Source of the DNA: Candidatus Omnitrophota bacterium
Lineage (GTDB): Bacteria; Omnitrophota; Omnitrophia; Omnitrophales; Aquincolibacteriaceae
Assembly: GCA_041653795.1 (NCBI GenBank)
Contig: JBAZER010000027.1
Coordinates: forward strand, 1-30,050
DNA length: 30,050 bases
Direction of reading: 5' to 3'
Under the pieces are notes generated by a model. It ran no database searches, was not told the origin of the DNA, and saw only the letters and a program-made list of their open reading frames with translations. Each line of letters begins with the position of its first letter. The first letter of the stretch is position 1. Positions 3,956 to 27,232 of the stretch are shown here, one piece after another. The translations under genes and the position numbers were made by a program.

Positions 3956-4425
3956 CGGTTCGTAAGAAAATTAAATACAGGCAAGAGAGCGCTTGTGTAA
4001 AGCGCCGTCATCGCGATCATCCCCAAATACCCCCAAACGAAGGACGGCGGCAATTCGCCCGCATAGCTCACCAGAAGTCTTAAAGCCCCCGCACAAAAGA
4101 CAAAAAGGAACGTAATGATGAGATAGATCCCCGGCATTTGGCGTTCCATTTTCCGGACTAAAAAATCAAGCGCCAGGGCCAAGGCGACCAGGAGAGTCGC
4201 ATCGAGCCCGATCAAACCACCCCCCAAAAGGTCCCGTAAAAGCCCGGCCCAGAACGCGACGTAAACGGTCTTGGAGGACCCCCATTCGAAAGCGGCGTAG
4301 CAAATGAAGAGGTAAAGGAGGCTCGGATATACGGAATAAATCTGAAAGACCGGCATCACAGACCCGTCCAGGACCGCGAGCAGGAGAAAATAAAGAATTA
4401 CTTTTGCGGAGACGAGACGAGGCAT
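3910..4425 (-). CDS. mreD: Rod shape-determining protein MreD
   Basis: 171 aa polytopic membrane protein sitting between mreC and mrdA. Confidence 0.7.
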   Translation of the reverse strand: MPRLVSAKVILYFLLLAVLDGSVMPVFQIYSVYPSLLYLFICYAAFEWGSSKTVYVAFWAGLLRDLLGGGLIGLDATLLVALALALDFLVRKMERQMPGIYLIITFLFVFCAGALRLLVSYAGELPPSFVWGYLGMIAMTALYTSALLPVFNFLTNRWFDHSSAKQYELFR

Positions 4426-6534: not shown

Positions 6535-7827
6535 TCAGGGCTTGAGAAGCCGGCGAAAGTGATCCATGAAAGCGGGATAAGAGGTCGCAATACATGCCGT
6601 GTTTGTAACCGTGATCGTCCCCTTCGAGGCAAGGCTTGCCACACCCATACTCATTGTCGTCCGGTGATCTCCGAAACTCTCGACGGTCGCGCCATGAAAC
6701 CCATCCACACCCCGGATCAGAGATCCGTCCGGAAGCTCTTCGATCGATGCCCCGATGGCCTTGAGATTCCGGACCATAGACTGAATACGGTCGGTTTCCT
6801 TGACACGCAGTTCCGCCGCTCCTGAAATAAGGCTTTCCCCTTCCGCGAGCGCCATCGCAACCATCAGAACCGGCAGTTCGTCGATCAGGGACGGGATCTC
6901 CCCGTGAGTGATCCCCGTACCTTTCAGTTTCGCACCGCACACGTGAATAGTCCCCATCGGCTCCGGAACCGTTTTCGTTATCTGTGTTTCAATCCTCGCA
7001 CCCATGCGCTTCAAAACTTCGAGAAATCCGGTACGTGTGGGATTCAATCCGACATCCTGAACGGTCACTTCGGACCCCGGGATCATCGCAGCACCCACGA
7101 CAAAAAAAGCGGCGGATGAAATATCGCCCGCAACGCGCGCATGCATCGGCAAAAGCATTTCTGTTTTTTCAACGATAAGATGATTGCCGATTTTCTGGAA
7201 ACGCGCTCCGGCCGCTTCAAGAAACCGCTCCGTATGGTCGCGCGACGGGATGGCTTCACGGACGATCGTTCTTCCCTCAGCGTACATTCCCGCAAAAAGA
7301 AGCGCGGACTTGACCTGCGCGCTTGAAAGTTTATTATCGAAATCAATCCCGCGAAGTTTGCCGCCGCGGATCGTGAGCGGCGCAAAATTGCCGTTCTCTC
7401 CGCCTCGAATCTGTGCGCCCATTTGTTTCAGAGGATCGGTCACACGACGCATGGGCCGGACCGAAAGAGACGGGTCCCCGGTCAACACGGCTTCGAAGCG
7501 CTGACCCGCCAGGATCCCCAAAAGAAGTCTCATGGAAGTCCCGGAATTCCCGAGATAAAGTTCCTGACCCGGAGCAGAAAGCCCTCGAAGCCCCCTTCCT
7601 ACTATCCGGACCTTGCCTGTTCCTTTTTCATGTTGGATTTCAACACCCATCCGGCGCATGGCTTCCAGGGTGTGAAGGCAATCTCCGGCCTCCAGGAAAT
7701 TCTCGTAGGAACTCTCTCCCTCGGCTAAAGCGCCGAAAAGGATCGCCCGGTGGGAAATGGATTTATCACCCGGAGGGGCATAGGTTCCGTGAAGCCGACC
7801 GGGACCTGAAAATGAAAGAGAGGGCAT
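6535..7827 (-). CDS. aroA: 3-phosphoshikimate 1-carboxyvinyltransferase (EPSP synthase)
   Basis: 430 aa; N-terminal GDKSISHR... and overall EPSPS fold signature. Confidence 0.9.
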
Positions 7828-9505: not shown

Positions 9506-9650
9506 AATGCTTTCTCCTTTTGGTTTGAACCGAGTTCCCGTATCCGATGTCCCGGACCCGCGCCCACGGCCTTTACTGGGTTAGTATCATACAATACAGT
9601 TTCAAAGACGACAATAAAGCTTTTCTGTCCAAGTCTTTATTTCATTTGGT

Positions 9651-9800
9651 TAATGGTGACTTGGACTGCCCTGGTTACCCATTGATTTTTTCATGAGAAC
9701 CAAGGACTGTCCAGATCTCTTGTTTCTTTTTTATAATGGCGATCTGGACTGCCCTGATTACCCGTTGATTTTTGAATGAGAATCAGGAGCTGTTTCTGTT
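9651..9800. repeat. Two tandem ~70-bp repeats (9651-9725 and 9733-9800, ~85% identical) in the nrdR-SWIB spacer. Each contains a hairpin CC(C)TGRTT-[acccRttgattttt..atgag]-AAYCAGG, with a compensatory G:C to A:T change between the copies
   Basis: Read directly: arms 9669-9676/9698-9705 and 9752-9759/9781-9788. The single mismatch in copy a becomes a G-U wobble only in a minus-strand RNA. Confidence 0.5.
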
Positions 9801-13122: not shown

Positions 13123-14406
13123 CTAGGCAGCGTTAGACTTTTCTTTGCTATCCTTTTTCAACAAAGCTTTCAGCTTTTCCAGGTCCATGCCGCTTTCCTG
13201 AAGGAACTGATGCATGTTCGCGCCGCCCTGGGCGTCCAGATTGATCCCAAAGAACTTTTGCGCATTTTCACCGGAAAGGATCCACTTGATATCGGCCTTT
13301 TGAACAGCTTGAGCCAAGGCCTGATACTTGCCAAGTAAAACCTCTTTCTGGACATCCAGCATTTTTACGTTCAGCGCGACATCATTGAATTCTTTTAAAG
13401 CGGCGGCAAGCTTTGATGTCCCGGCCGCATCTGCTTCTTTTTTGACCCTGATAATATCCGCTTCGGCTTTTCCGACGGTTTGGATCTGGTTGGATTGCCC
13501 TTCCGCTTCAAGCGTGAATTTCAATTTTTGAGCCATGGCAAGTTGTTCGATCTTCTGTTTTTCGATTTCGGCTTTTCCGACCTCTAGTTTCCGTAAAGCC
13601 TCGATACGCTGGCTATTGGCTTCCACCTCTCTCAATGCGATATCCTGGTTCTTGGACTGTTCCGAGATGCCGATTTGTTTATCCTTTTCGATCTGTCTTT
13701 TCCGGTAAGTTTCCTCTGCTTCGGCTTTGGCAAGCTCCGCCTCTTTAGTCGTGGTTGCGACCCGGATATCCGCGTCGCGGCGTATCTCGGCCGCGACCTT
13801 TCTTTCGATATCCTGGATGATCGTACTCCCCGGCGCATCCTTGATGTCCTTCAATTCGAGGTCCACAAGTTCGATCCCCCACTTGGGGAAAACCTGTTCG
13901 ACTTCTTTGGTGATCGCCTGATCCAGAAGCGAACGGTTCATATAAATATCCAGGATCGTTTGTTTGGTGGTAACCGTGCGACCGACGCTTTCCATAATGG
14001 CCCGCAGATCTTCCGACAACTTCATAAAATCAAAACCCATCTCCGCGGACGTGTCGGTCAGGATCAATCTTTCAACGGCCAGATTGATATTTTTGATATT
14101 GATGAAGCACATCAGATCGCAAACAAACTTGGCCATATCCCTGTCATTCAGTTTGATATCATTGACGGGAATCGCCAGATTGCAGAGAGGGAGTTTGTGC
14201 AGTTTTGTGATGAACGGGATGACCCAATAGGCGCTTTTGCCTTCCCGGGAGGAAAAGATTGTTTTTGAATTTTGGAGGATCCGGATATGGGTCTCATTCA
14301 CGGGAACCACACGGTAGAGCCCGAACATACCGCCTAAAATGTGCCGAAGCAGAAAAAGCACGGGCAATGCGGCGGTAACAATTATTATCAAAATCATCGG
14401 ATTCAT
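13123..14406 (-). CDS. Flotillin-like SPFH/band-7 protein (FloT/YuaG-like): N-terminal membrane hairpin, SPFH domain, long EA-rich coiled-coil C-terminus
   Basis: 427 aa with SPFH architecture and the flotillin-type KAEAE/QKIEQ repeat region; no nfeD partner adjacent. Confidence 0.75.
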   Translation of the reverse strand: MNPMILIIIVTAALPVLFLLRHILGGMFGLYRVVPVNETHIRILQNSKTIFSSREGKSAYWVIPFITKLHKLPLCNLAIPVNDIKLNDRDMAKFVCDLMCFINIKNINLAVERLILTDTSAEMGFDFMKLSEDLRAIMESVGRTVTTKQTILDIYMNRSLLDQAITKEVEQVFPKWGIELVDLELKDIKDAPGSTIIQDIERKVAAEIRRDADIRVATTTKEAELAKAEAEETYRKRQIEKDKQIGISEQSKNQDIALREVEANSQRIEALRKLEVGKAEIEKQKIEQLAMAQKLKFTLEAEGQSNQIQTVGKAEADIIRVKKEADAAGTSKLAAALKEFNDVALNVKMLDVQKEVLLGKYQALAQAVQKADIKWILSGENAQKFFGINLDAQGGANMHQFLQESGMDLEKLKALLKKDSKEKSNAA

Positions 14407-17374: not shown

Positions 17375-18796
17375 TCATAGCTTGCAGCAATTCCTTTTAT
17401 GCTCCAGTTTATACTTGTCATCCGCATCATAGATTTTGGTCGGGTATTTCCCGGTAAAACATGCTGCGCAAAAGTCTTTCGGGTTTTGCGTCGTCGAACC
17501 AAGCATCCCCTCGAGACTCAGGTACCCGAGCGTATCCACGTTAAGGAATTTCATAATCTCCTCAATGCTTTTATTGGCCGCCAAAAGCTCTTTTTTCGAC
17601 GGAAAATCGATCCCGTAAAAACAGGGCGAAATGTGCGGCGGACAGCTGATCCTCATATGCACTTCCTTGGCGCCCGCACTCCTCAAAAGTTTCACGCGGT
17701 TCTTCGCCGTGTTCCCGCGCACGATCGAATCGTCGACCACAATCACTCGTTTGCCGTCCACGACCTGACGGATAGGGTTCAATTTGATCTTCACCTTGAG
17801 CTGGCGGCCCGCTTCTGAAGGACTAAGGAATGTGCGTCCGATATAGTGGTTACGGATGAAACCGTGCGAAAACGGTATCCCCGATTCCCTTGAATAGCCC
17901 AAGGCCGCAAAACTGCCTGAGTCCGGCACCGGGATCACGATGTCTGCGTCCACGGGATGTTCCCTGGCGAGCTGCCGGCCCAGTTTTTCACGCACAAGTC
18001 CCACGCTATCGTGAAAAATATTGGAATCCGGCCTGGCGAAATAGACGTGCTCAAAAATGCACTGCGCCTTGGCGATCTTTTCATCCTTAAAAGGAAAATG
18101 ACTGCGAAGCCCTTTACTGTCGATCACGACGACCTCGCCCGGCTCGATTTCGCGGACAAACTCCGCCTCGATCAGATCGAACGCGCAAGTCTCGGACGCA
18201 AGCACGTAACTCGGCCCTAATTTCCCGAGACAAAGAGGCCGGAACCCTTGCGGGTCGCGGACCCCGAACAAATGGTCCTCGGTCAGAAGAACCAGGCTGA
18301 ATGCACCTTTCGCGCGCTTTGCCGCCTCGATCACGCCTTCTTCATGAGAACGGTAGGATGGTTTGGCGATCATGTGCACAAAGACCTCGGAATCGATCGT
18401 GCTCCCGAAAATGGAGCCATAAGCCTCCAGCTCCGCGCGAAGGATCTGCGCATTCACAAGGTTCCCGTTATGCGCAATCGCGATCTGTCCGCGCGAATAA
18501 TCGACCTTGTAGGGTTGGGCGTTCAAAAGCGTCGAAGATCCGGTCGTGGAATAGCGCACATGGCCGATGGCGTTTTTCCCGGGGAGCTGCGCAAAAGAAG
18601 ATTCGTCGAACGCCTCACCCACATGCCCCATTTTCTTGACGAGATAAAGGTCAGAACTGTCGCTTGTGCAGATCCCGGCTGCTTCTTCGCCGCGATGCTG
18701 AAGCGCAAAAAGCCCGAGCTGTGTGATGCGCGCCGCCTGGGGATGATTGTAGATACCAAAGATGCCGCAATGATGCTTGATGTTTTCGCCGCTCAT
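17375..18796 (-). CDS. purF: Amidophosphoribosyltransferase. Start at the internal MSGENIKHHCGIFG (N-terminal Cys nucleophile); C-terminal Cys cluster of the Fe-S type
   Basis: Ntn-glutaminase CGIFG motif, PRTase domain; RBS GGAGAA upstream of the internal start. Confidence 0.9.
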   Translation of the reverse strand: MSGENIKHHCGIFGIYNHPQAARITQLGLFALQHRGEEAAGICTSDSSDLYLVKKMGHVGEAFDESSFAQLPGKNAIGHVRYSTTGSSTLLNAQPYKVDYSRGQIAIAHNGNLVNAQILRAELEAYGSIFGSTIDSEVFVHMIAKPSYRSHEEGVIEAAKRAKGAFSLVLLTEDHLFGVRDPQGFRPLCLGKLGPSYVLASETCAFDLIEAEFVREIEPGEVVVIDSKGLRSHFPFKDEKIAKAQCIFEHVYFARPDSNIFHDSVGLVREKLGRQLAREHPVDADIVIPVPDSGSFAALGYSRESGIPFSHGFIRNHYIGRTFLSPSEAGRQLKVKIKLNPIRQVVDGKRVIVVDDSIVRGNTAKNRVKLLRSAGAKEVHMRISCPPHISPCFYGIDFPSKKELLAANKSIEEIMKFLNVDTLGYLSLEGMLGSTTQNPKDFCAACFTGKYPTKIYDADDKYKLEHKRNCCKL

Positions 18797-18829
18797 AAGA
18801 ACTGTTCTCCATTTAATTTTAAAGGTTAA

Positions 18830-18875
18830 CAGTCCCAATACCTATCAATTTCAGCTTTGCTGAAATTGGGGCTGT
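18830..18875. promoter_or_regulatory. Nested dyad element AGTCCCAAT-acctat-CAATTTCAGC-ttt-GCTGAAATTG-GGGCT, 35 bp upstream of purF; a second copy is at 25391-25434
   Basis: 10-bp perfect inner inverted repeat plus an outer 9-bp imperfect one; not followed by a T-run on either strand. Confidence 0.4.
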
Positions 18876-18945
18876 CCAAACTGCCTTATTGGAAAAGAAA
18901 CCGAAAGTTTGGGCTGTACTAATACCGCAAACCCTCAAAATTTAT

Positions 18946-19045
18946 ATGCGTTGCTCCAGTTATTCCCTCCTGTAGGGCACATTTAAATGTGCCCTACGGA
19001 AGAGAGGATAGAGCGAATATCTCTCAGGAAACCGGAACAATGCAT
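18946..19045 (+). mobile_element. MITE copy 1 (100 bp). Imperfect ~16-bp TIRs (ATGCGTTGCTCCAGTT / AACCGGAACAATGCAT), a central 26-bp perfect palindrome GTAGGGCACATTTAAATGTGCCCTAC, and a 5-bp TSD TTTAT (18941-18945 and 19046-19050). Sits between purF and purL
   Basis: Three near-identical copies in the window, each with its own 5-bp direct duplication. Confidence 0.65.
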
Positions 19046-19063
19046 TTTATATAAAATGCGGTA

Positions 19064-21331
19064 TTATTTTCGTTCCATGATATTGGGAATCGTGTTTTCG
19101 AAAAGTTTCACCATGTTCCCGACTGTCAGCCGGATCCGGTCTCCCAGGATGAGCGTGTCTCCGCCTACCTTACCGATTTCGTAAAGTGCAACCCCCTGTT
19201 TCTGCGCCAAATTCCTGATGTCCTTTTGATGCTCGGGCGTGACCGAGATTACCACACGTGACTGACTTTCGCCGAAATAAAGTGCATCCGCACGAAGTTC
19301 CTTTTGATCTTTCAAAACACCGTCAAGACCGTTCACCACAGCACCCAAGCCGCCGGCGCTCTTGATGCAACATTCGGCAAGCGCAACCGCAAGCCCGCCC
19401 TCGGAAAGATCATGACAGGAAACGATTTTTTTTCCGTCTGCGGCGGCAAGGATGAATTGATGAAGCGCCTTTTCGCGCGCGAGGTCAAGGCGCGGCGGCA
19501 GGCCCTGCTTCAATCCGTGCTCGATCATCAGGTAGTGGCTCCCGCCAAGTTCATTGAACGTTTCGCCCGCGAGAAAAATAATATCATCAGCATTCTGGAA
19601 CGCCGACGGGACGCGTTTTTCGATATTCTCCAAAAGACCCACCATGCCGATCGTGGGCGTCGGATAGATGGCGCCCTGCGGGCTCTCGTTATAGAAGCTG
19701 ACGTTCCCGCCTGTCACCGGGATCTCAAGCGCCTTGCAGGATTCGATAATCCCGGAGACGGCGCTATGAAATTGCCAGAAAATCTCGGGTTTCATGGGAT
19801 TGCCGAAATTAAGACAATTTGTCACACCGACCGGCCGTGCGCCGGAACAGACGACGTTACGCGCCGCTTCCGCAACGGCGATTTTTCCGCCCTCGAACGG
19901 ATCGAGATAAACATAAAGACTGTTGCAATCGGTCGAGACCGCAATTCCTTTTTGTGTTCCCTTGATGCGGATGAGCGCAGCGTCATGTCCCGGATAAAAG
20001 ACCGTGTCCGTACGGACCATGTGGTCGTACTGTTGCCAAACCCAGGCCTTGGAAGCAATCGAAGGATCTGAGAGCAGTCGCTTGAGTACGTCACTGAAAT
20101 TCTCGGGCTCGGAAATTACGGCAAGATCAAGTTTTTGCGCTTCGGCAAGGTAGGCCGGCTTTTCTTCTTCACGCATATAAACTGGCCCGTCATCCGCAAG
20201 CGCTTTGGCCGGGATCTCCGCGGCCATTTTTCCCCCGTCCAGCACGCGATATTTGTCACCCCGGGTCACTTCGCCGATCTTTACGGCATGAAGGTCCCAT
20301 TTCGTGAAAATGTCCTCGACCTCTTTTTCCTTTCCTTTTTTGACAATGACCAGCATGCGCTCCTGCGATTCCGAAAGCAGGGTTTCATAGGGGGTCATTC
20401 CGGGCTCGCGGCGCGGCACTTTTGCGAGATCGATCTCGACCCCGGTGCTTGCGCGGGACGCGGTCTCGCAACCTGCACAGGTCAGGCCCGCGGCGCCCAT
20501 ATCCTGCATACCCACAAGCGCGTCGGTCCTGAGAAGCTCCAGACACGCTTCCATCAAAAGTTTTTCCATAAACGGATCACCCACTTGCACGGCCGGGCGG
20601 TCCTCATGACTTTGTTCCGAGAGCTCTTTGGAAGCGAATGCCGCGCCGCCAAGTCCGTCACGGCCGGTCGTGGCTCCCACATAATAAACCGGATTGCCGA
20701 TGCCGTGCGCCGCGCCGCGCACGATCTCATCTTTTTGGATGATCCCGAGCGCCATCGCATTCACCAGGGGATTTCCTTCATAAGCAGCATCAAAATAGAT
20801 ATCGCCTCCGACGGTCGGAATGCCCATGCAATTACCGTAATGCGCGATCCCTGCGACCACCCCGCGGAAAAGCCGCTGACTCACCGGCTGCGCGAGATCC
20901 CCGAACCGGAGAGAATTCATTAAAAGGACCGGCCGCGCGCCCATGGTGAAAATATCCCGGAGAATGCCGCCCACGCCCGTTGCCGCACCCTGGAAGGGCT
21001 CGATCGCCGACGGATGGTTATGACTTTCGATCTTGAAACACACCGCAAGACCGTCGCCGATATCCACGATCCCGGCATTCTCCTGTCCCGGTTTCACGAG
21101 CAGGTGCTCCTGACGCGGGAGTTCCGCATTCATTTTGGAAAAGAGCTTGAGGATGGACTTGGAATTCTTATAAGAGCAATGCTCGCTCCACATCACGCTG
21201 AACATCCCGAGTTCTGTGATGTTGGGGTCCCGGCCGAGAATGTCCCGGATATGTTGAAACTCTTCCGGCGTGATTCCGTGCGCCGCGATTAATTCCGAAG
21301 TGATAGGTGTCGTCGAATCCAGTACCGGCAT
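19064..21331 (-). CDS. purL: Phosphoribosylformylglycinamidine synthase subunit PurL (FGAM synthase II)
   Basis: 755 aa, two PurM-like repeats, typical small-PurL N-terminus (...[12 protein letters not shown]...). Confidence 0.9.
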
Positions 21332-21334
21332 AAT

Positions 21335-22024
21335 TTATTCCAGTGCGTTTGAGATGCTTTCGAAAATCCTGCGTCCGTCCGAAGAGCCGAGGAGGTCTTC
21401 ACTCGACCGCTCCGGATGCGGCATCATGCCCAGGACGTTCTTTTTCCTGTTCACGATGCCCGCGATGTGGTCCCTGGAACCGTTCGGGTTGAACTCTTCC
21501 CCGAGCTTCCCGTCCTCGGACGAATAACGAAAAACGACCTGGGAGTGGTCATGGAGGGACTTCAGCGTATCATCATCGCAATAATAATTCCCTTCGCCGT
21601 GCGCGATGGGAACACAAAGTGTCTCGCCCGGTTCCATCTGACCGGTAAAAATCGTCAGGTTCTCTTCCGTGCGGATCCAGGTGTGCTTGCAGATAAATTC
21701 CAGCGTTTTGTTCCGAAGCATCGCGCCCGGCAAGAGCCCGGCCTCCAGAAGGATCTGGAATCCGTTGCAGATCCCGATCACGGCCCGGCCGTCATTGGCG
21801 TGTTTGATCACCGATTCCATGACGGGAGAAAAGCGCGCGATCGCGCCGGTCCTGAGATAATCGCCGTAGCTGAACCCCCCGGGAATAACCACCAGATCCA
21901 CTTTGGGAAGGCTCCGGTCCTTGTGCCAGACATATTTCACAGGCACTTTGACGACGTCCTTAAGCGCATGGAAACAATCCGTATCGCAATTGGAACCCGG
22001 AAATACAATGACCGCGGCTTTCAT
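21335..22024 (-). CDS. purQ: Phosphoribosylformylglycinamidine synthase glutaminase subunit PurQ
   Basis: Class I glutamine amidotransferase with [14 protein letters not shown]... start; 229 aa. Confidence 0.9.
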
Positions 22025-22052
22025 GACTTTGAGATTTCCTTTTAAAAGCTTC

Positions 22053-22120
22053 CGTCATTGCGAGGAGTCCCGCCGACGGCGGAGCGACGCGGCAATCTCT
22101 CTCTACAAAAACGAGATTGC
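22053..22120. repeat. Short repeat CGTCATTGCGAGGA-[GC hairpin]-GGCAATCTC with a GCAATCTC/GAGATTGC hairpin; a related copy is at 26961-27033. Both lie just upstream of a MITE copy
   Basis: 14-bp and 9-bp identical blocks separated by different self-complementary GC stretches (CCGCCGACGGCGG vs CCTGCGAAGCAGG). Confidence 0.3.
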
Positions 22121-22159
22121 TTTCCGCCAGAGGCGGACACAAACTCGCAATAACACATT

Positions 22160-22259
22160 ATGCATTGTTCCGGTTTCCTGAGAGATATTCGCTCTATCCT
22201 CTCTTCCGTAGGGCACATTTAAATGTGCCCTACAGGAGGGAATAACTGGAGCAACGCAT
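22160..22259 (-). mobile_element. MITE copy 2 (100 bp, inverted orientation, identical to copy 1), TSD ACATT (22155-22159 and 22260-22264). Lies in the purQ-purS spacer
   Basis: Exact reverse complement of copy 1, flanked by a 5-bp direct repeat. Confidence 0.65.
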
Positions 22260-22270
22260 ACATTCTTTGT

Positions 22271-22528
22271 TTATGAAGGCACTTCTTGAATTTCGAATGA
22301 ATACTCTTCGATCACAGGATTATGAAGCAGCTTGTCGCACATGACGTGAATACATTCCTCCGCCTTTGTACGGTCGTCCGCTTCAAGCGCCAGCTCGAAA
22401 TACTTTCCGATCCGCAGGCTCTTTGCCTCTTTGAACCCCAGGGACTCGAGCGCGTGAAGCGTCGTTTGTCCCTGCGGGTCCAGGACCGATTTTTTTAAAC
22501 TGGTATGAATTCTTGCTGTAAATTTCAT
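22271..22528 (-). CDS. purS: Phosphoribosylformylglycinamidine synthase subunit PurS. Start at the internal MKFTARIH; the listed ORF runs to 22591
   Basis: 85-aa PurS fold sequence (…LDPQGQTTLHALESLGF…). Confidence 0.85.
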   Translation of the reverse strand: MKFTARIHTSLKKSVLDPQGQTTLHALESLGFKEAKSLRIGKYFELALEADDRTKAEECIHVMCDKLLHNPVIEEYSFEIQEVPS

Positions 22529-22613
22529 GTCGATCAACCCTCTTTCGTGTAGTTCGAATCTTCCCGCCTGGGACTGGGCCCCATTATTCAACGGCGGTAT
22601 GTTTTTTTAACTT

Positions 22614-23534
22614 CTAGCTTCGGATATCTTTTCCAGACAGACGTTTATAAATCTCACAATAGGCTTCGGTGGTTTTTTCGATGATATCGCCTGGAAGCTC
22701 CGGCGCGGGCGGGCGCTTGTCCCACGAGAGCGTCTCGAGATAATTCCTCACGATCTGTTTGTCGAAGCTCGTCTGGTCATGACCGGTCTCATATTGGTCA
22801 GCCGGCCAAAAACGAGAACTGTCCGGCGTCAGAATCTCGTCGATCAATATTATCTTTCCATCATGGATCCCAAATTCAAATTTTGTATCCGCAATGATGA
22901 TCCCTTTCGACGCCGCGTATTCCTGGCCTTTCTTGTAGAGAAGAATAGAAAGGTCCTTGGCCTGCTGGGCGATGTCTTTGCCCACGATCCGGATCGCTTC
23001 GCTGAAATCGATATTGATATCATGCCCGGTCTTCGCCTTCGTGGACGGGGTGAAGATCGGTTCCGGGAATTTCTGGCACTGTTTCATCCCGGGCAAAAGC
23101 GTGTGCCCGCAAACCTTGCCCGTCTTCAAATAATCTTTCCAACCAGACCCGGTAATGTAACCCCGCACCACGCATTCAATCGCAAGCGGCTTGGCCCGTT
23201 TCACGAGCACCGAACGCCCGGTCAGTTCATGACGAAAGTTAGCGACCACCTCTTTCGGCAAACCCATCGCGTCCACATCCGCGGTGATCAGGTGCTGCGG
23301 GAGAACATCTTTGAAATATTCGAGCCAGAAAAGCGTGATCTGGTTGAGCACTTTTCCCTTCATCGGGATCGGGTCAGGCATCACCACGTCAAAAGCACTC
23401 AGCCGATCGGTCGTCACGATCAGAAGCTTATCGGAACCCACGCCGTAGATATCACGCACCTTTCCGGCCGCTACACGCGGCAGAGGCAGATGCGTTTCCA
23501 GGATCGCTTCGTTCCTGTCAAGATCACTGAACAT
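22614..23534 (-). CDS. purC: Phosphoribosylaminoimidazole-succinocarboxamide synthase (SAICAR synthetase)
   Basis: 306 aa long-form PurC with GKVRDIY motif. Confidence 0.9.
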   Translation of the reverse strand: MFSDLDRNEAILETHLPLPRVAAGKVRDIYGVGSDKLLIVTTDRLSAFDVVMPDPIPMKGKVLNQITLFWLEYFKDVLPQHLITADVDAMGLPKEVVANFRHELTGRSVLVKRAKPLAIECVVRGYITGSGWKDYLKTGKVCGHTLLPGMKQCQKFPEPIFTPSTKAKTGHDINIDFSEAIRIVGKDIAQQAKDLSILLYKKGQEYAASKGIIIADTKFEFGIHDGKIILIDEILTPDSSRFWPADQYETGHDQTSFDKQIVRNYLETLSWDKRPPAPELPGDIIEKTTEAYCEIYKRLSGKDIRS

Positions 23535-23559
23535 ATTTTGGTTCCCTTATTTCTTTTTC

Positions 23560-25002
23560 TTAAAAATGAACCTTACGCACTTCGTTTCGTAAGCTCTTTT
23601 TACGTATCATCCCAGAAAAAGACTGGCCTGGTTTATACGTGACCCCTTTATCGGTAACCGTTGATGCATACAAAAAATCTTTTAAAACCCTTCGTTTCGA
23701 AAACATTTCAATTCCCGTACGTTTCAGAATGACCGGCACATTCTTGAGGTGTCTGTCATAGCTGAAAACCGCGCGGATCTCCTGGGGCGTCAGGACTTTC
23801 AAGATCTTCTCGTCTTTCAGCACCACCTGCTCCAGGTAAAGCTTTTCATCTTCCCAAAGCTTCCTGGCCGCATCCTGCACAAGCTTGTAGCCTTCCTCGC
23901 GCGTCAAGCCCTTCTCCACGAGGGCAAGAAGCAGGCTTTGCGAAAACACCATTCCGCGGCTCGACTCCAGATTCTTGAGCATGCGGTCCTTATTGACCAC
24001 GAGGTTCTCGATCACGTTCTGCATGAGCCCAAGCATGTAATCAAGGAGGATCGTGCTGTCGGGGAAAATGACGCGCTCGACGGAAGAATGCGTGATGTCC
24101 CGCTCGTGCCAAAGTGCGATATTCTCAAAACCCGCGAGCGCGTTCCCGCGAAGAATGCGCGAAAGTCCTGCCACACGTTCGCAGGTGATCGGGTTGCGCT
24201 TATGCGGCATGGCTGAGGAACCTTTCTGCCCTTTTGAAAAAAATTCCTGCACTTCAAAAATCTCTGTCCTCTGAAGACCCCGGATCTCGGTCGCAAGTTG
24301 TTCGAGCGTTCCACCAACAATTGCGATTGCACCAAGATATTCCGCATGACGGTCGCGCTGAAGGACCTGCGTCGAAACCGGCGCCGGGTTCAGCCCGAGC
24401 TTCTTGCAGACAAATTCTTCGACCCTGGGATCCACATTTGCAAAAGTCCCGACTGCGCCTGAGATCTTGCCATAGCGAAGATTTTCTTTGGCGGCCTCAA
24501 GACGCACGAGGCCCCGTTTACATGCGGCATGGAAAAGCGCCATCTTGAGCCCGAACGTGATAGGTTCGGCATGCACGCCGTGCGAGCGCCCCACCATAAG
24601 GGTACGGGCATGTTCTTTGGCTTTTTTGCCGAGAAGGGAGATAAGTTTTTTCAGTTCGCGGATAAGGATATCCGAGGCTTCCTGGACCTGGAGCGAAAGC
24701 CCGGTATCCAGAACATCTGATGAGGTCAGTCCAAAGTGGACGTAGCGGCCGGCAGGGCCGGCGTTCTCGGAAATATTGGTAAGAAAAGCAATGACGTCGT
24801 GATTGACGACCTTTTCGATCTCTTTGACTCGTTCAATGTCGAATTTCGCCCGTGCACGGACTTTGGCGGGAACATCTTTGGGGATATAGCTGTAACGTGC
24901 AAGGCCCTCAAGCGCGGCCAGTTCCACCTCAAGCCACTTTTGGAGCTTGTTCTCTTCCGTCCAGACCTTCGCCATTTCCTGGCGTGTGTAACGAGAGATC
25001 AT
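23560..25002 (-). CDS. purB: Adenylosuccinate lyase. Start at the internal MISRYTRQEMAKVW with RBS AAGGAAGGTGG; carries a ~50-aa basic C-terminal extension beyond the usual PurB end
   Basis: Fumarate-lyase/PurB signature (...SSAMPHKRNP...); start codon 33 nt downstream of the tRNA-Glu 3' end. Confidence 0.9.
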   Translation of the reverse strand: MISRYTRQEMAKVWTEENKLQKWLEVELAALEGLARYSYIPKDVPAKVRARAKFDIERVKEIEKVVNHDVIAFLTNISENAGPAGRYVHFGLTSSDVLDTGLSLQVQEASDILIRELKKLISLLGKKAKEHARTLMVGRSHGVHAEPITFGLKMALFHAACKRGLVRLEAAKENLRYGKISGAVGTFANVDPRVEEFVCKKLGLNPAPVSTQVLQRDRHAEYLGAIAIVGGTLEQLATEIRGLQRTEIFEVQEFFSKGQKGSSAMPHKRNPITCERVAGLSRILRGNALAGFENIALWHERDITHSSVERVIFPDSTILLDYMLGLMQNVIENLVVNKDRMLKNLESSRGMVFSQSLLLALVEKGLTREEGYKLVQDAARKLWEDEKLYLEQVVLKDEKILKVLTPQEIRAVFSYDRHLKNVPVILKRTGIEMFSKRRVLKDFLYASTVTDKGVTYKPGQSFSGMIRKKSLRNEVRKVHF

Positions 25003-25035
25003 CTTGTGTCCACCTTCCTTATGGCCCACAACCAA

Positions 25036-25113
25036 TGGTAGCGCTAACGGGATTTAAACCCGTGTTTCTGCCTTGAGAGGGCAGCGTCCTAGATCAGGCT
25101 AGACGATAGCGCC
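25036..25113 (-). tRNA. tRNA-Glu, anticodon CUC, CCA encoded. The T-loop is unusual (TTTAAAT) and the D-loop has no GG
   Basis: Reverse complement GGCGCTATCGTCTAGCCTGATCTAGGACGCTGCCCTCTCAAGGCAGAAACACGGGTTTAAATCCCGTTAGCGCTACCA. 7-bp acceptor, Glu-like D-arm (TCGTCTAG...AGGAC), anticodon stem CTGCC/GGCAG with loop CTCTCAA. Confidence 0.7.
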
Positions 25114-25363
25114 CTGATGTATCCAATTTATTTTCCCACATGGCTACATTAGGGCTGCACTGATTTCTCGATTCTTTTCTCAATAGAAAATCAGGCGCCC
25201 TGATGGACCTATTCAATCAGGCGCCATACAAACACGGGGCCTGTCAGAAACTAACCAACGATTGAAAACTGATTACGCCCTGATGGATCCAATTCATTTT
25301 TCCAATGGCTCCATTAGGGCTGCATTGATTTCCCGATTCATTTCTATATGGAAAATCAAGCGG
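25109..25363. repeat. Two tandem ~88-bp units (25109-25197 and 25275-25363, ~85% identical) directly upstream of tRNA-Glu. Each has hairpin 1 GCCCTGATGKA...TMCATTAGGGC and hairpin 2 YTGATTTCYC...RGAAAATCAR. A diverged middle segment also starts CGCCCTGATGG
   Basis: Read directly. Three compensatory base-pair changes between the two copies; G-U wobbles appear only in the plus-strand RNA sense. Confidence 0.6.
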
Positions 25364-25390
25364 GGGGATTGAAAATCCTTCAAACAAGTC

Positions 25391-25434
25391 CAGTCCCAAT
25401 TCTTTTCAATTTCAAAAAATCTGAAATTGGGGCA
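25391..25434. promoter_or_regulatory. Second copy of the nested dyad: CAGTCCCAAT-tcttt-TCAATTTCA-aaaaatc-TGAAATTG-GGGCA. Lies upstream of the tRNA-Glu/purB transcription unit
   Basis: Same outer and inner arms as 18830-18875, but a different loop sequence and length. Confidence 0.4.
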
Positions 25435-25566
25435 GCCCTCGTCACCATTCAAAAAACAAAGACAAGGGCAGTATAGCTTTGCCCCTATAGGATGTCAACG
25501 GAACTAGTCCCGGTCACCTTAAATTCAGCAAAAGTCGGGGCGATCGAACGACGCGGAAAGACAATA

Positions 25567-25845
25567 CTAGAACTTTCGATCAACCTTGTCCTTCAGGTCG
25601 TACACGGACTTCTCAAGCATTTTCACACGCTCGGACATGAACCGATTTGCCTGCTCCAGATCCGCGACGCGCCGTTCAAGTCTGTCCGCACGGTCCTGCC
25701 TGAGAGTCTTCTCCATATCGGCGAATTCCGTCGAAGTTCCACTCATCCCCGTCCCCGCCGCTTCGTCCTCGACCGCCCACGAAAGTGAGAATACGATCGA
25801 AAAAAACAGCACCCCTAAAATTGAAATTGCTGCGAGTTTTTTCAT
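25567..25845 (-). CDS. Small secreted coiled-coil protein (signal peptide MKKLAAISILGVLFFSIVFSLSWA, then about 65 aa of heptad repeats); Lpp-like in size but has no lipobox Cys
   Basis: Read from the translation; internal start chosen at MKKLAAIS. Confidence 0.45.
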   Translation of the reverse strand: MKKLAAISILGVLFFSIVFSLSWAVEDEAAGTGMSGTSTEFADMEKTLRQDRADRLERRVADLEQANRFMSERVKMLEKSVYDLKDKVDRKF

Positions 25846-25963
25846 AGGAGTCACCTCGAGCGGAGTATATCATAATTATAAAAGACGGGGAACGCAAAAC
25901 GGGAAACGCTGAACGCCAACGCTTTTTCGTTACCCGTTAACCGTTCCCCGAGCCCCGAGGCGT

Positions 25964-26887
25964 TTAGCCTCGAGGATGGAATTTCGCGTGAACGGACTTG
26001 AGGCGGTTTCCGGAAACATGCGTATAGATCTGTGTCGTGGAGATATCGGAATGACCGAGGAGCTCCTGCACGACGCGCAGGTCCGCGCCGCGTTCCAGCA
26101 GGTGCGTCGCAAAAGAATGGCGAAACGTGTGGGGTGTGATTGTTTTGGTGATGCCGGCAAGCCGCGCGTATTTTTTGATCATCTGCCATACAAATTGACG
26201 CGTCAGCCCCTTCCCGCTCCTGCCCAGAAAAAAATGATCCGTCCTGGTCTTCAATTTTGAACGGAACCTGGCAAGATAAGTCTGGCAAGCGGAGACCGCA
26301 ACACTTCCGAGCGGCACGAGCCGCTCCTTGTCACCCTTGCCGCGGCACTTGATGAACTTGTTATCCAGATACACATGCTCCGCCGTGAGCTCCGTGATCT
26401 CGGAGACCCGCATCCCGGTCGCGTAAAGGCATTCCAGAAGCGCCAGGTCGCGTATTCCCCCGGGCTTTTTGACGTCCGGCATCTTGAGAAGAGAGTCCAT
26501 CTCCTGTGCGGTCAAAAAGTGCGGCAGCTTTTTCCAGAGCTTCGGCGACTCAAGGACGCTTGTGATATCGCTTGGAACATAGCGTTCTTTGGCGAGAAAA
26601 CGGTGGAAAAGCTTGACCGAGACAAGCCCGCGTGCGATCGAGGAAGATTCGAGTCCGCGCCTGCTTTCCGCATTCAGGAATTTCAGGATGTGCGTCCGCG
26701 AGACCTTGCTCCAGTCCGAGACCTTTTCTTTTTTGAGGAATACGTCGTAGCGCACAAGGTCCTGCCGGTAAGCGTCGAGCGTGTTCTGCGCCAGTCCTTT
26801 TTCCACGGAGAGATAATTCAGGAACTCTTCAAAGAGGGACTGGTTCTTGTCCCTGGGTTTTTCCGGAGTCACCGCTGTTGTATCCAT
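25964..26887 (-). CDS. xerD: Tyrosine site-specific recombinase of the XerC/XerD type (most XerD-like)
   Basis: 307 aa; conserved R..H..R..Y catalytic C-terminus ...LLGHSDISTTQIYTHV...; the N-terminal core-binding domain aligns along its length with XerD. Confidence 0.8.
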   Translation of the reverse strand: MDTTAVTPEKPRDKNQSLFEEFLNYLSVEKGLAQNTLDAYRQDLVRYDVFLKKEKVSDWSKVSRTHILKFLNAESRRGLESSSIARGLVSVKLFHRFLAKERYVPSDITSVLESPKLWKKLPHFLTAQEMDSLLKMPDVKKPGGIRDLALLECLYATGMRVSEITELTAEHVYLDNKFIKCRGKGDKERLVPLGSVAVSACQTYLARFRSKLKTRTDHFFLGRSGKGLTRQFVWQMIKKYARLAGITKTITPHTFRHSFATHLLERGADLRVVQELLGHSDISTTQIYTHVSGNRLKSVHAKFHPRG

Positions 26888-27123
26888 CGCTTCTGGTATC
26901 GGCTAAACAACCCCAGGACTAGAGACTAAGAACCAAGAGCCTATCCTGATAACAATGTTGCGTCATTGCGAGGAACCTGCGAAGCAGGGACCGTGGCAAT
27001 CTCGTTTTTTTCGTTCTTGTAGAAAAAGATCGCTACGCCCTCTTCTCCGCCAAAGGACGGATTCGTCCGACGCCTTGTGGCGAAGGGGCCCGCGATGACA
27101 AATTGAAATCTGGAGAACTTAAA

Positions 27124-27223
27124 ATGCGTTGCTCCAGTTATTCCCTCCTGTAGGGCACATTTAAATGTGCCCTACGGAAGAGAGGATAGAGCAAATATCT
27201 CTCAGGAAACCGGAACAATGCAT
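27124..27223 (+). mobile_element. MITE copy 3 (100 bp, 1 mismatch to copy 1), TSD TTAAA (27119-27123 and 27224-27228). Sits between xerD and the flavoprotein gene
   Basis: Same TIRs and palindrome; flanked by a 5-bp direct repeat. Confidence 0.65.
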
Positions 27224-27232
27224 TTAAAGTTT

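Follow-up and report, generated by a model that had tools for sequence, protein, structure and literature searches.

The insert between purS and purQ is very probably a young, non-autonomous MITE that was mobilised in trans by an enzyme which we infer to be of the DDE type, and it appears to sit in the pur operon as a near-neutral passenger. As judged from its sequence, the element is a recently active MITE with the full signature of this class: it is small and has no coding capacity in its 100 bp, it has terminal inverted repeats (TIRs) and target-site duplications of fixed length and variable sequence, and it occurs as dispersed near-identical copies with empty sites in relatives. The original prediction, which called the insert a MITE, is thus upheld by the TIRs, the differing 5-bp duplications, the empty sites and about 70 near-identical copies. 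The one feature of the class that was not found is a cognate autonomous IS with matching ends encoding a transposase. The element belongs to a well-known kind and represents a new MITE family. For its phylum, Omnitrophota, a full-text literature search returned no paper making a link to MITEs; a literature search with sequence strings of the element gave unrelated primer and guide matches only.

The window, that is the whole stretch of 30,050 nucleotides analysed here, carries a pur operon on the minus strand comprising purB, purC, purS, purQ, purL, purF, purM, purD and purE, as assigned by Pfam and the names of homologues, and the best homologues of its PurQ come from Candidatus Omnitrophota. 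The true start of purS is the ATG at 22528, with relatives giving a gene call of 85 aa, while the mechanical list of open reading frames begins the gene at a TTG at 22591. Because of this true start, the purC-purS junction measures 85 bp. The other junctions are 25 bp (purB-purC), 3 bp (purQ-purL), 225 bp (purL-purF, where MITE copy 1 sits), 143 bp (purF-purM) and -4 bp (both purM-purD and purD-purE). It had been proposed that all junctions other than purS-purQ span 3-25 bp, which is wrong given those of 85, 143 and 225 bp. The TTG starts of the longest reading frames overextend purS, purF and purB relative to the gene calls in relatives (85, 473 and 436 aa), adding 22529-22591, 18799-18838 and 24871-25035, respectively, and raw lists of open reading frames therefore underestimate spacer lengths.

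Table 1. Positions of the features discussed, in window coordinates.
Feature	Position	Strand	Length	Description
purS	22271-22528	-	85 aa	Pfam PurS, E = 6e-29
purQ	21335-22024	-	229 aa	Homologues named PurQ; Pfam GATase_5
purS-purQ spacer	22025-22270		246 bp	
MITE copy 2	22160-22259	-	100 bp	Copy 1 reverse-complemented
Target-site duplication, purQ side	22155-22159			ACATT on plus strand; read from the sequence and from collinearity with L101
Target-site duplication, purS side	22260-22264			ACATT on plus strand
Left terminal inverted repeat	22244-22259	-		ATGCGTTGCTCCAGTT on minus strand
Right terminal inverted repeat	22160-22175	+		ATGCATTGTTCCGGTT, inward on plus strand
Perfect palindrome	22208-22233		26 nt	GTAGGGCACATTTAAATGTGCCCTAC; as RNA, a 13-bp stem with a UUAA loop
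X1	22054-22154			Older, unrelated nested-hairpin element; ends GTCATTGCGAG...CTCGCAATAAC
MITE copy 1	18946-19045	+		In purL-purF spacer; antisense to operon
Copy 1 duplications	18941-18945 and 19046-19050			TTTAT
MITE copy 3	27124-27223	+		One mismatch
Copy 3 duplications	27119-27123 and 27224-27228			TTAAA
SPFH/Band_7 gene	13123-14406	-	427 aa	Between purE and a Sua5/TsaC-like gene
tRNA genes	910-982 and 25039-25113			Second just upstream of purB
CAATTTCA...TGAAATTG repeats	18830-18877, 25391-25438			Hairpin repeat family
D2, D5 repeats	1007-1064, 25140-25197, 25305-25362; 9637-9710, 9720-9793			Short intergenic repeats

The reverse complement of copy 2 matches copy 1 at 100/100 positions and differs from copy 3 by 1 base, in agreement with the prediction that copy 2 is an identical, reversed copy 1. 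Its 'forward' orientation (ATGCGTTGCTCC...GGAACAATGCAT) coincides with the minus strand, the sense strand of the pur operon, and read in that sense the full element is ATGCGTTGCTCCAGTTATTCCCTCCTGTAGGGCACATTTAAATGTGCCCTACGGAAGAGAGGATAGAGCGAATATCTCTCAGGAAACCGGAACAATGCAT. The TIRs are about 16 bp long and imperfect (ATGCRTTGYTCCRGTT), with 13 of 16 positions matching and the 3 mismatches all being transitions. Shuffled sequences predict 0.00 occurrences of the 26-nt palindrome, of which the window contains 3. Between copy 2 and the purS stop codon (TAA, 22271-22273, minus strand) lie 11 nt, as had been predicted, and 5 of these 11 are the duplicated target ACATT.

Filled and empty sites can be compared directly. 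An independent contig, L001 (ENA sample ERZ27247363), differs from window positions 18320-26419 by 10 mismatches over 8100 bp and carries copies 1 and 2 at the same sites, which excludes an assembly artefact. A relative whose PurQ is 98% identical was found twice, as L101 (JGI metagenome 3300029288) and as L102 (ERZ27247363, the same sample as L001), and its purS-purQ spacer is 75 bp long and free of the MITE. The window reads CAAAG-AATGT-[element]-AATGT-GTTATTGCGAG where L101 reads CAAATAGTGTGTCATTGC, a near-exact empty site, and deletion in silico of copy 2 together with one duplication leaves a sequence collinear with L101. The purL-purF junction of L101 and L102 is an exact empty site (CGCATTTTAT-ATAAA-TTTTGA in L101); at the site of the third copy, the whole surrounding region differs in the relative. 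Judging from these filled and empty sites, the strain had already separated from the relative with the 98% identical PurQ when copy 2 inserted between purS and purQ. Filled (L001) and empty (L102) alleles of the pur operon coexist in one sample, ERZ27247363.

The three copies in the window are 99-100% identical and each has its own 5-bp duplication (TTTAT, AATGT in element orientation for copy 2, and TTAAA); copy 3 begins 9 nt past the stop codon of an FMN-reductase gene. Scanning of JGI metagenome contigs for exact matches to the 20-nt left end of the element gave 53 loci with 71 copies, nearly all from metagenome Ga0265297, the same metagenome from which L101 was recovered. Sixty-seven of these copies measure exactly 100 bp and one measures 101 bp; three are truncated where the contig or locus ends. 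They differ by 0-3 mismatches: 45 of the 64 distinct copies match the consensus throughout, and the others depart from it by 1-3 changes, for the most part transitions. Perfect 5-bp duplications flank 55 of 68 JGI copies, with 6-7 bp in most others, and 42 different 5-mers are represented. From 51 distinct reconstructed sites, the target consensus is A(-4) W A(-2) Y [W T N A T] R T(+6) W T(+8), a symmetric (palindromic), AT-rich sequence of about 13 bp. The triplet CAT often found 10 nt to the left of copies was considered as a possible start codon; this was rejected, as it belongs to the symmetric target consensus. An exact scan for the palindrome found no copies in viral contigs, and blastn against a plasmid collection returned no similar plasmid DNA. 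An apparent resemblance to the right end of the element in L014 is the 3' end of a 1773-aa coding sequence and is coincidental. At L158:1-144, the left half of the MITE ends exactly at the centre of the palindrome and, at a contig end, runs into unrelated sequence; the palindrome probably broke the de Bruijn assembly here, although a longer or rearranged relative of the element could also account for it.

With respect to mobilisation, the combination of TIRs, duplications of fixed length and a palindromic target is what a DDE transposase multimer that cuts with a 5-bp stagger classically leaves behind. From the TIRs and target-site duplications of this family, we infer a DDE-type transposase that would have acted in trans with cuts staggered by 5 bp. 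A parent IS was sought in several ways. Pfam searches of the open reading frames in the window gave none (the 427-aa gene encodes an SPFH/Band_7 protein, not a transposase), nor did a generic TIR-plus-duplication search of 516 kb of a MITE-rich relative or a fuzzy terminal-repeat search of all fetched loci. Every complete match among the exact left-end hits in JGI contigs was a 100-bp (once 101-bp) unit, again without a parent, and a degenerate terminal-repeat scan of viral contigs gave 5 chance matches and no element. Many accepted bacterial MITE families also have no known parent, and the missing IS is therefore not disqualifying.

The element shares most of its features with the bacterial MITEs that have been reviewed previously (PMC10969869; PMC2229807): a size below 200 bp, absence of coding sequence, TIRs, target-site duplications, many near-identical intergenic copies, a strong fold if transcribed, sites that are filled in one strain and empty in a close one, and a tendency to cluster with further small repeats. 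It differs from many of them in its duplication, which is 5 bp (to 7 bp) within a palindromic 13-bp AT-rich target rather than TA, in its ends, which start ATGC, in having no known cognate IS, and in its host phylum, Omnitrophota. The Correia/NEMIS elements of Neisseria are about 100-155 bp long, bounded by inverted repeats, often co-transcribed as hairpins that can be RNase III substrates, and polymorphic between strains (PMC2649163; PMC2229807). Size, bounding inverted repeats, hairpin and strain polymorphism are all shared with the present element, however, Correia elements have a TA duplication, 26-bp repeats, an IHF site and promoters at their ends, whereas here we find variable 5-bp duplications, 16-bp repeats and no promoter-like site; with no sequence similarity between the two, the element is not assigned to Correia/NEMIS. 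ERIC/IRU sequences of enterobacteria are imperfect palindromes in operon spacers that are co-transcribed and are reported to have orientation-dependent effects on mRNA stability (PMC2229807). They resemble copy 2 as imperfect palindromes of similar size within an operon spacer, but ERIC copies are old and diverged while those described here are near-identical and have clear duplications.

What the insert does to the operon is a separate question. Folded as RNA, the purS-purQ spacer has a predicted energy of -104.1 kcal/mol (z = -7.0 against shuffles), and the element alone gives -44.7 kcal/mol in operon sense (z = -7.0) and -48.7 kcal/mol in antisense (z = -8.6), which agrees with the expectation that either orientation places a hairpin in the mRNA. 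No promoter-like hexamer pair or terminator-like site was found on either strand of 22025-22270, and the hairpin in operon sense is followed by GGAAGAGAGG, without the U-run of an intrinsic (Rho-independent) terminator. Since these signals are absent, the element is probably read through in the polycistronic mRNA: lying between co-directional operon genes, copy 2 would be co-transcribed and would add a hairpin of about -45 kcal/mol starting 11 nt past the purS stop. Such a hairpin could alter mRNA stability, and a modest effect on RNA processing or decay is plausible by analogy with RNase III cleavage of Correia transcripts and the orientation-dependent stability effects of ERIC. At most, we would expect a modest change in mRNA processing or decay at the purS/purQ boundary, with copy 2 most likely near neutral.

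This expectation draws on the distribution of the family. The gene context of 72 distinct copies (3 in the window and 69 from the metagenome) is co-directional for 38, divergent for 12 and convergent for 7, with 13 unclassifiable near contig ends and 2 inside probably spurious reading frames. In the co-directional spacers, 17 copies are sense and 21 antisense, with no orientation bias (p = 0.63). Within the window, the oppositely oriented copies 1 and 2 occupy one operon, upstream of the remaining pur genes (purQ, purL, purF, purM, purD and purE between them). The insert is probably near neutral because both orientations occur in co-directional spacers and because two opposite copies lie inside the pur operon itself; the same two observations on orientation, together with the relative that has the same operon without the insert, argue against strong polarity or regulation. 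It should be noted that the argument from orientation is weakened by the youth of the copies, as there may not have been time for selection to purge insertions that do slight harm. Preferential insertion directly past stop codons was also considered as a strong effect but proved weak, with 5 of 56 gene 3'-end sides having a copy within 11 nt in a stricter gene set.

An alternative is that the MITE and the adjacent X1 repeat make the spacer a selected cis-regulatory RNA of the pur operon (an attenuator, RNase site or stability barrier), with the MITE co-opted and the expression of purB-purC-purS uncoupled from that of purQ-purL-purF. In E. coli, a REP hairpin situated near a stop codon can influence the gene upstream of it, and the spacer has a very stable fold (z = -7) which would be co-transcribed 11 nt past the purS stop. 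In Neisseria and Yersinia, effects of MITE hairpins on cleavage by RNase III and on the stability of mRNA have also been reported (PMC2229807; PMC2649163). We nevertheless consider a selected regulatory role improbable, given that the insert is absent from the 98%-PurQ relative with the same operon, that identical copies occupy about 70 unrelated intergenic sites in both orientations, and that the copies have none of the sequence divergence that would indicate local adaptation. Nor does the spacer carry a terminator-like or promoter-like motif or an Rfam match: at the gathering threshold of Rfam 15, the window as a whole gave two tRNAs only, and with permissive settings 21950-22350 gave nothing beyond miRNA and CRISPR noise below threshold. 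The regulatory importance implied in the original prediction is thus unsupported, as the closest relative lacks the insert and the family has no orientation bias. The MITE is most likely an incidental, recent and tolerated insertion in the pur operon and not an evolved pur regulator.

The more unusual thread in this analysis is the palindrome that the element carries, which recurs across the phylum. With one genome per species scanned for GTAGGGCAC-N8-GTGCCCTAC, most of the matches listed, to which all counts refer, came from Candidatus Omnitrophota MAGs: the core palindrome GTAGGGCAC-NNTTAANN-GTGCCCTAC is present in at least 27 species-level genomes of this phylum from marine, groundwater, landfill and other environments, and hairpins of the same type occur in several bins named 'uncultured Planctomycetia'. 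These MAGs carry the hairpin on its own between genes, in many contexts that have nothing in common. Examples among the loci L002-L100 are L003:4268-4293, L016:3156-3181 and 4004-4029, and L059:2429/5526/5597. The centre covaries such that the palindrome stays perfect (CCTTAAGG, CTTTAAAG, ACTTAAGT, ATTTAAAT, GTTTAAAC), and related stems with compensatory changes also occur (GTAGCGCAC, GTAGGTCAC, GTAGAGCAC). In some genomes the hairpin is flanked by runs of A and of T, in the manner of a bidirectional terminator. Among the matches listed, 16 of 68 hairpins centred on TTAA have TGTGGATAA (with at most 1 mismatch) at a distance of exactly 3 nt from their foot, against a background of 0.31 per kb, and beside hairpins this motif is usually followed by C/G and then T. 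The motif is the DnaA-box consensus read on the other strand. Hairpins with such a box are found at L028:5389-5430, L059:5526-5640, L007:6470-6525 and L017:5564-5640; L007 has the box sequence on both sides of the hairpin and L017 has three boxes in one spacer. The neighbours of the L017 spacer are presumably murG and murC (a MurC-like N-terminus was recognised by eye), and the presence of the module between these putative genes means that the DnaA-box motif is not confined to the replication origin.

A transposase gene accompanies this hairpin in one genome. L057:6930-7592 contains a gene for a 161-aa Pfam Y1_Tnp protein (7013-7498; E = 1.8e-11; IS200/RAYT-like), with 56-nt direct repeats on both sides that are 91% identical and each contain a GTAG(G/A)GCAC...GTGC(C/T)CTAC hairpin; in one of the two, the stem has undergone a compensatory G>A / C>T change. 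There is also a third hairpin, an imperfect one, that overlaps the gene's stop codon. The unit looks like a REP-RAYT or IS200-type element built on the same hairpin as the core of the MITE, and it points to a REP-like or IS200-end-like nature of the hairpin seen across the phylum. The core of the MITE, an element that is DDE-like in its transposition, would then be such a hairpin, and the origin of the element may be composite, since a palindrome of the core type flanks a Y1 (HUH) gene in another Omnitrophota genome. In the MITE-rich relative, L133 (600-1996) contains a RAYT-like Y1_Tnp gene of 221 aa (767-1432) whose stop codon is 67 bp away from a MITE copy (600-699) and which is itself next to a canonical IS200-type tnpA (1538-1996). 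This adjacency may be chance or a hint at the source of the core hairpin; the RAYT-like gene of L133 has a MITE copy on one side only. A RAYT-like gene in L016 was considered as a further hairpin-bounded unit and rejected, as it is bounded by different inverted repeats.

One could go further and read the element as a REP/REPIN or IS200/IS605-derived sequence that moves as ssDNA by means of a Y1 (HUH, RAYT-like) transposase recognising the GTAG...CTAC hairpin. The solo hairpins in at least 27 Omnitrophota species, the flanking repeats of the L057 gene with their compensatory stem change, and the proximity in the MITE-rich genome of a RAYT-like gene (67 bp) and an IS200 tnpA (about 840 bp) to a MITE copy would all fit such an origin. 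Y1 transposases of the IS200/IS605 kind, however, insert beside a fixed short target and make no duplications, whereas the present family has 42 different 5-bp duplications, a palindromic target consensus and TIRs. Moreover, all occurrences of the hairpin in 516 kb of the host lineage lie within the 100-bp unit, and the L133 copy has an ordinary 6-bp duplication of its own. Movement by a Y1 enzyme is thus very unlikely. The comparison with REP/BIME/REPIN sequences leads the same way: the GTAG-footed core palindrome is shared, and hairpins of the same type are dispersed in Omnitrophota and flank Y1_Tnp at one locus, but REP/REPIN sequences have neither TIRs nor target duplications and the element has both, and it is not placed with the RAYT-associated REP/REPIN class. 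A terminator-like polar insertion that splits the operon and leaves purQ and the downstream genes to a new promoter in or near the element is hardly credible: the strong hairpin and the runs of A and of T beside same-type hairpins in other Omnitrophota would suit it, but in operon sense neither the hairpin nor the closed element has a U-run after it, the spacer has no promoter-like hexamer pair, and a second copy of opposite orientation lies further down an operon whose MITE family has no orientation bias among co-directional genes.

Alongside DDE-type mobilisation of the MITE, we also entertain, as an unlikely proposal, that the core is a phylum-wide recognition hairpin (REP-like, tied to Y1/RAYT and coupled in about a quarter of cases to a DnaA box at 3 nt) and that the MITE is a chimera that spreads this module by DDE-type transposition. 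If true, about 70 sites, the pur operon among them, would have gained along with the hairpin a conserved function, for example in binding a host factor, forming transcript 3' ends or recognising ssDNA.

Copy 2 is probably unimportant for the regulation of purine synthesis, and the interest of the family lies elsewhere. It provides a documented MITE family, with ends, duplications, target consensus, empty sites and copy number, for Omnitrophota, an uncultured phylum of small cells. The filled and empty pur alleles in one sample offer a natural experiment on how a 100-bp hairpin insert affects expression within an operon, and MITE insertions are good strain-level markers. Small repeats of this kind also explain the unusually long and structured intergenic spacers of the lineage, in which gene callers may mis-set start codons.

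Beside copy 2, the purS-purQ spacer contains the X1 repeat, which directly abuts the target duplication of the MITE. At this junction X1 measures 39 nt in L101 (PurQ 98% identical) and about 90 nt in L103 (92%) and is absent from L105 (86%). From these comparisons, X1 was resident in the spacer before the MITE, which inserted later at its edge. The spacer had been described as roughly 245 bp of structured sequence; its length (246 bp) and strong fold stand, but since X1 was already present in relatives, the structure consists of two layers of different age. In the X1 family the ends are conserved (GTCATTGCGAG...CTCGCAATGAC) and the hairpins nested between them vary (GCAATCTC/GAGATTGC, CCGCC/GGCGG), with the lengths of 39, about 90 and 101 nt at purS-purQ in different relatives appearing as if the repeat grew by nested insertion. 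Besides 22054-22154, family sites are the window at about 26955-27080, L101:5830-5870, L103:9893-9985, L153:5760-5805, L123:9545-9634 and L139:1529-1607. A MITE lies within 50 nt of an X1 element three times, twice in the window and once in L153.

Further small repeats populate the intergenic regions of these genomes. Another hairpin family has the stem CAATTTCA...TGAAATTG, often CCCAATTTC...GAAATTGGGG, with variable loops, and is found both in the window (Table 1) and at many intergenic sites in L112-L164. The window also holds the shorter D2 and D5 repeats, some of which adjoin the tRNA genes. In L103 and L105, purE and the Sua5/TsaC-like gene are adjacent, and the SPFH/Band_7 gene between them in the window is therefore a strain-specific insertion in an otherwise syntenic block.
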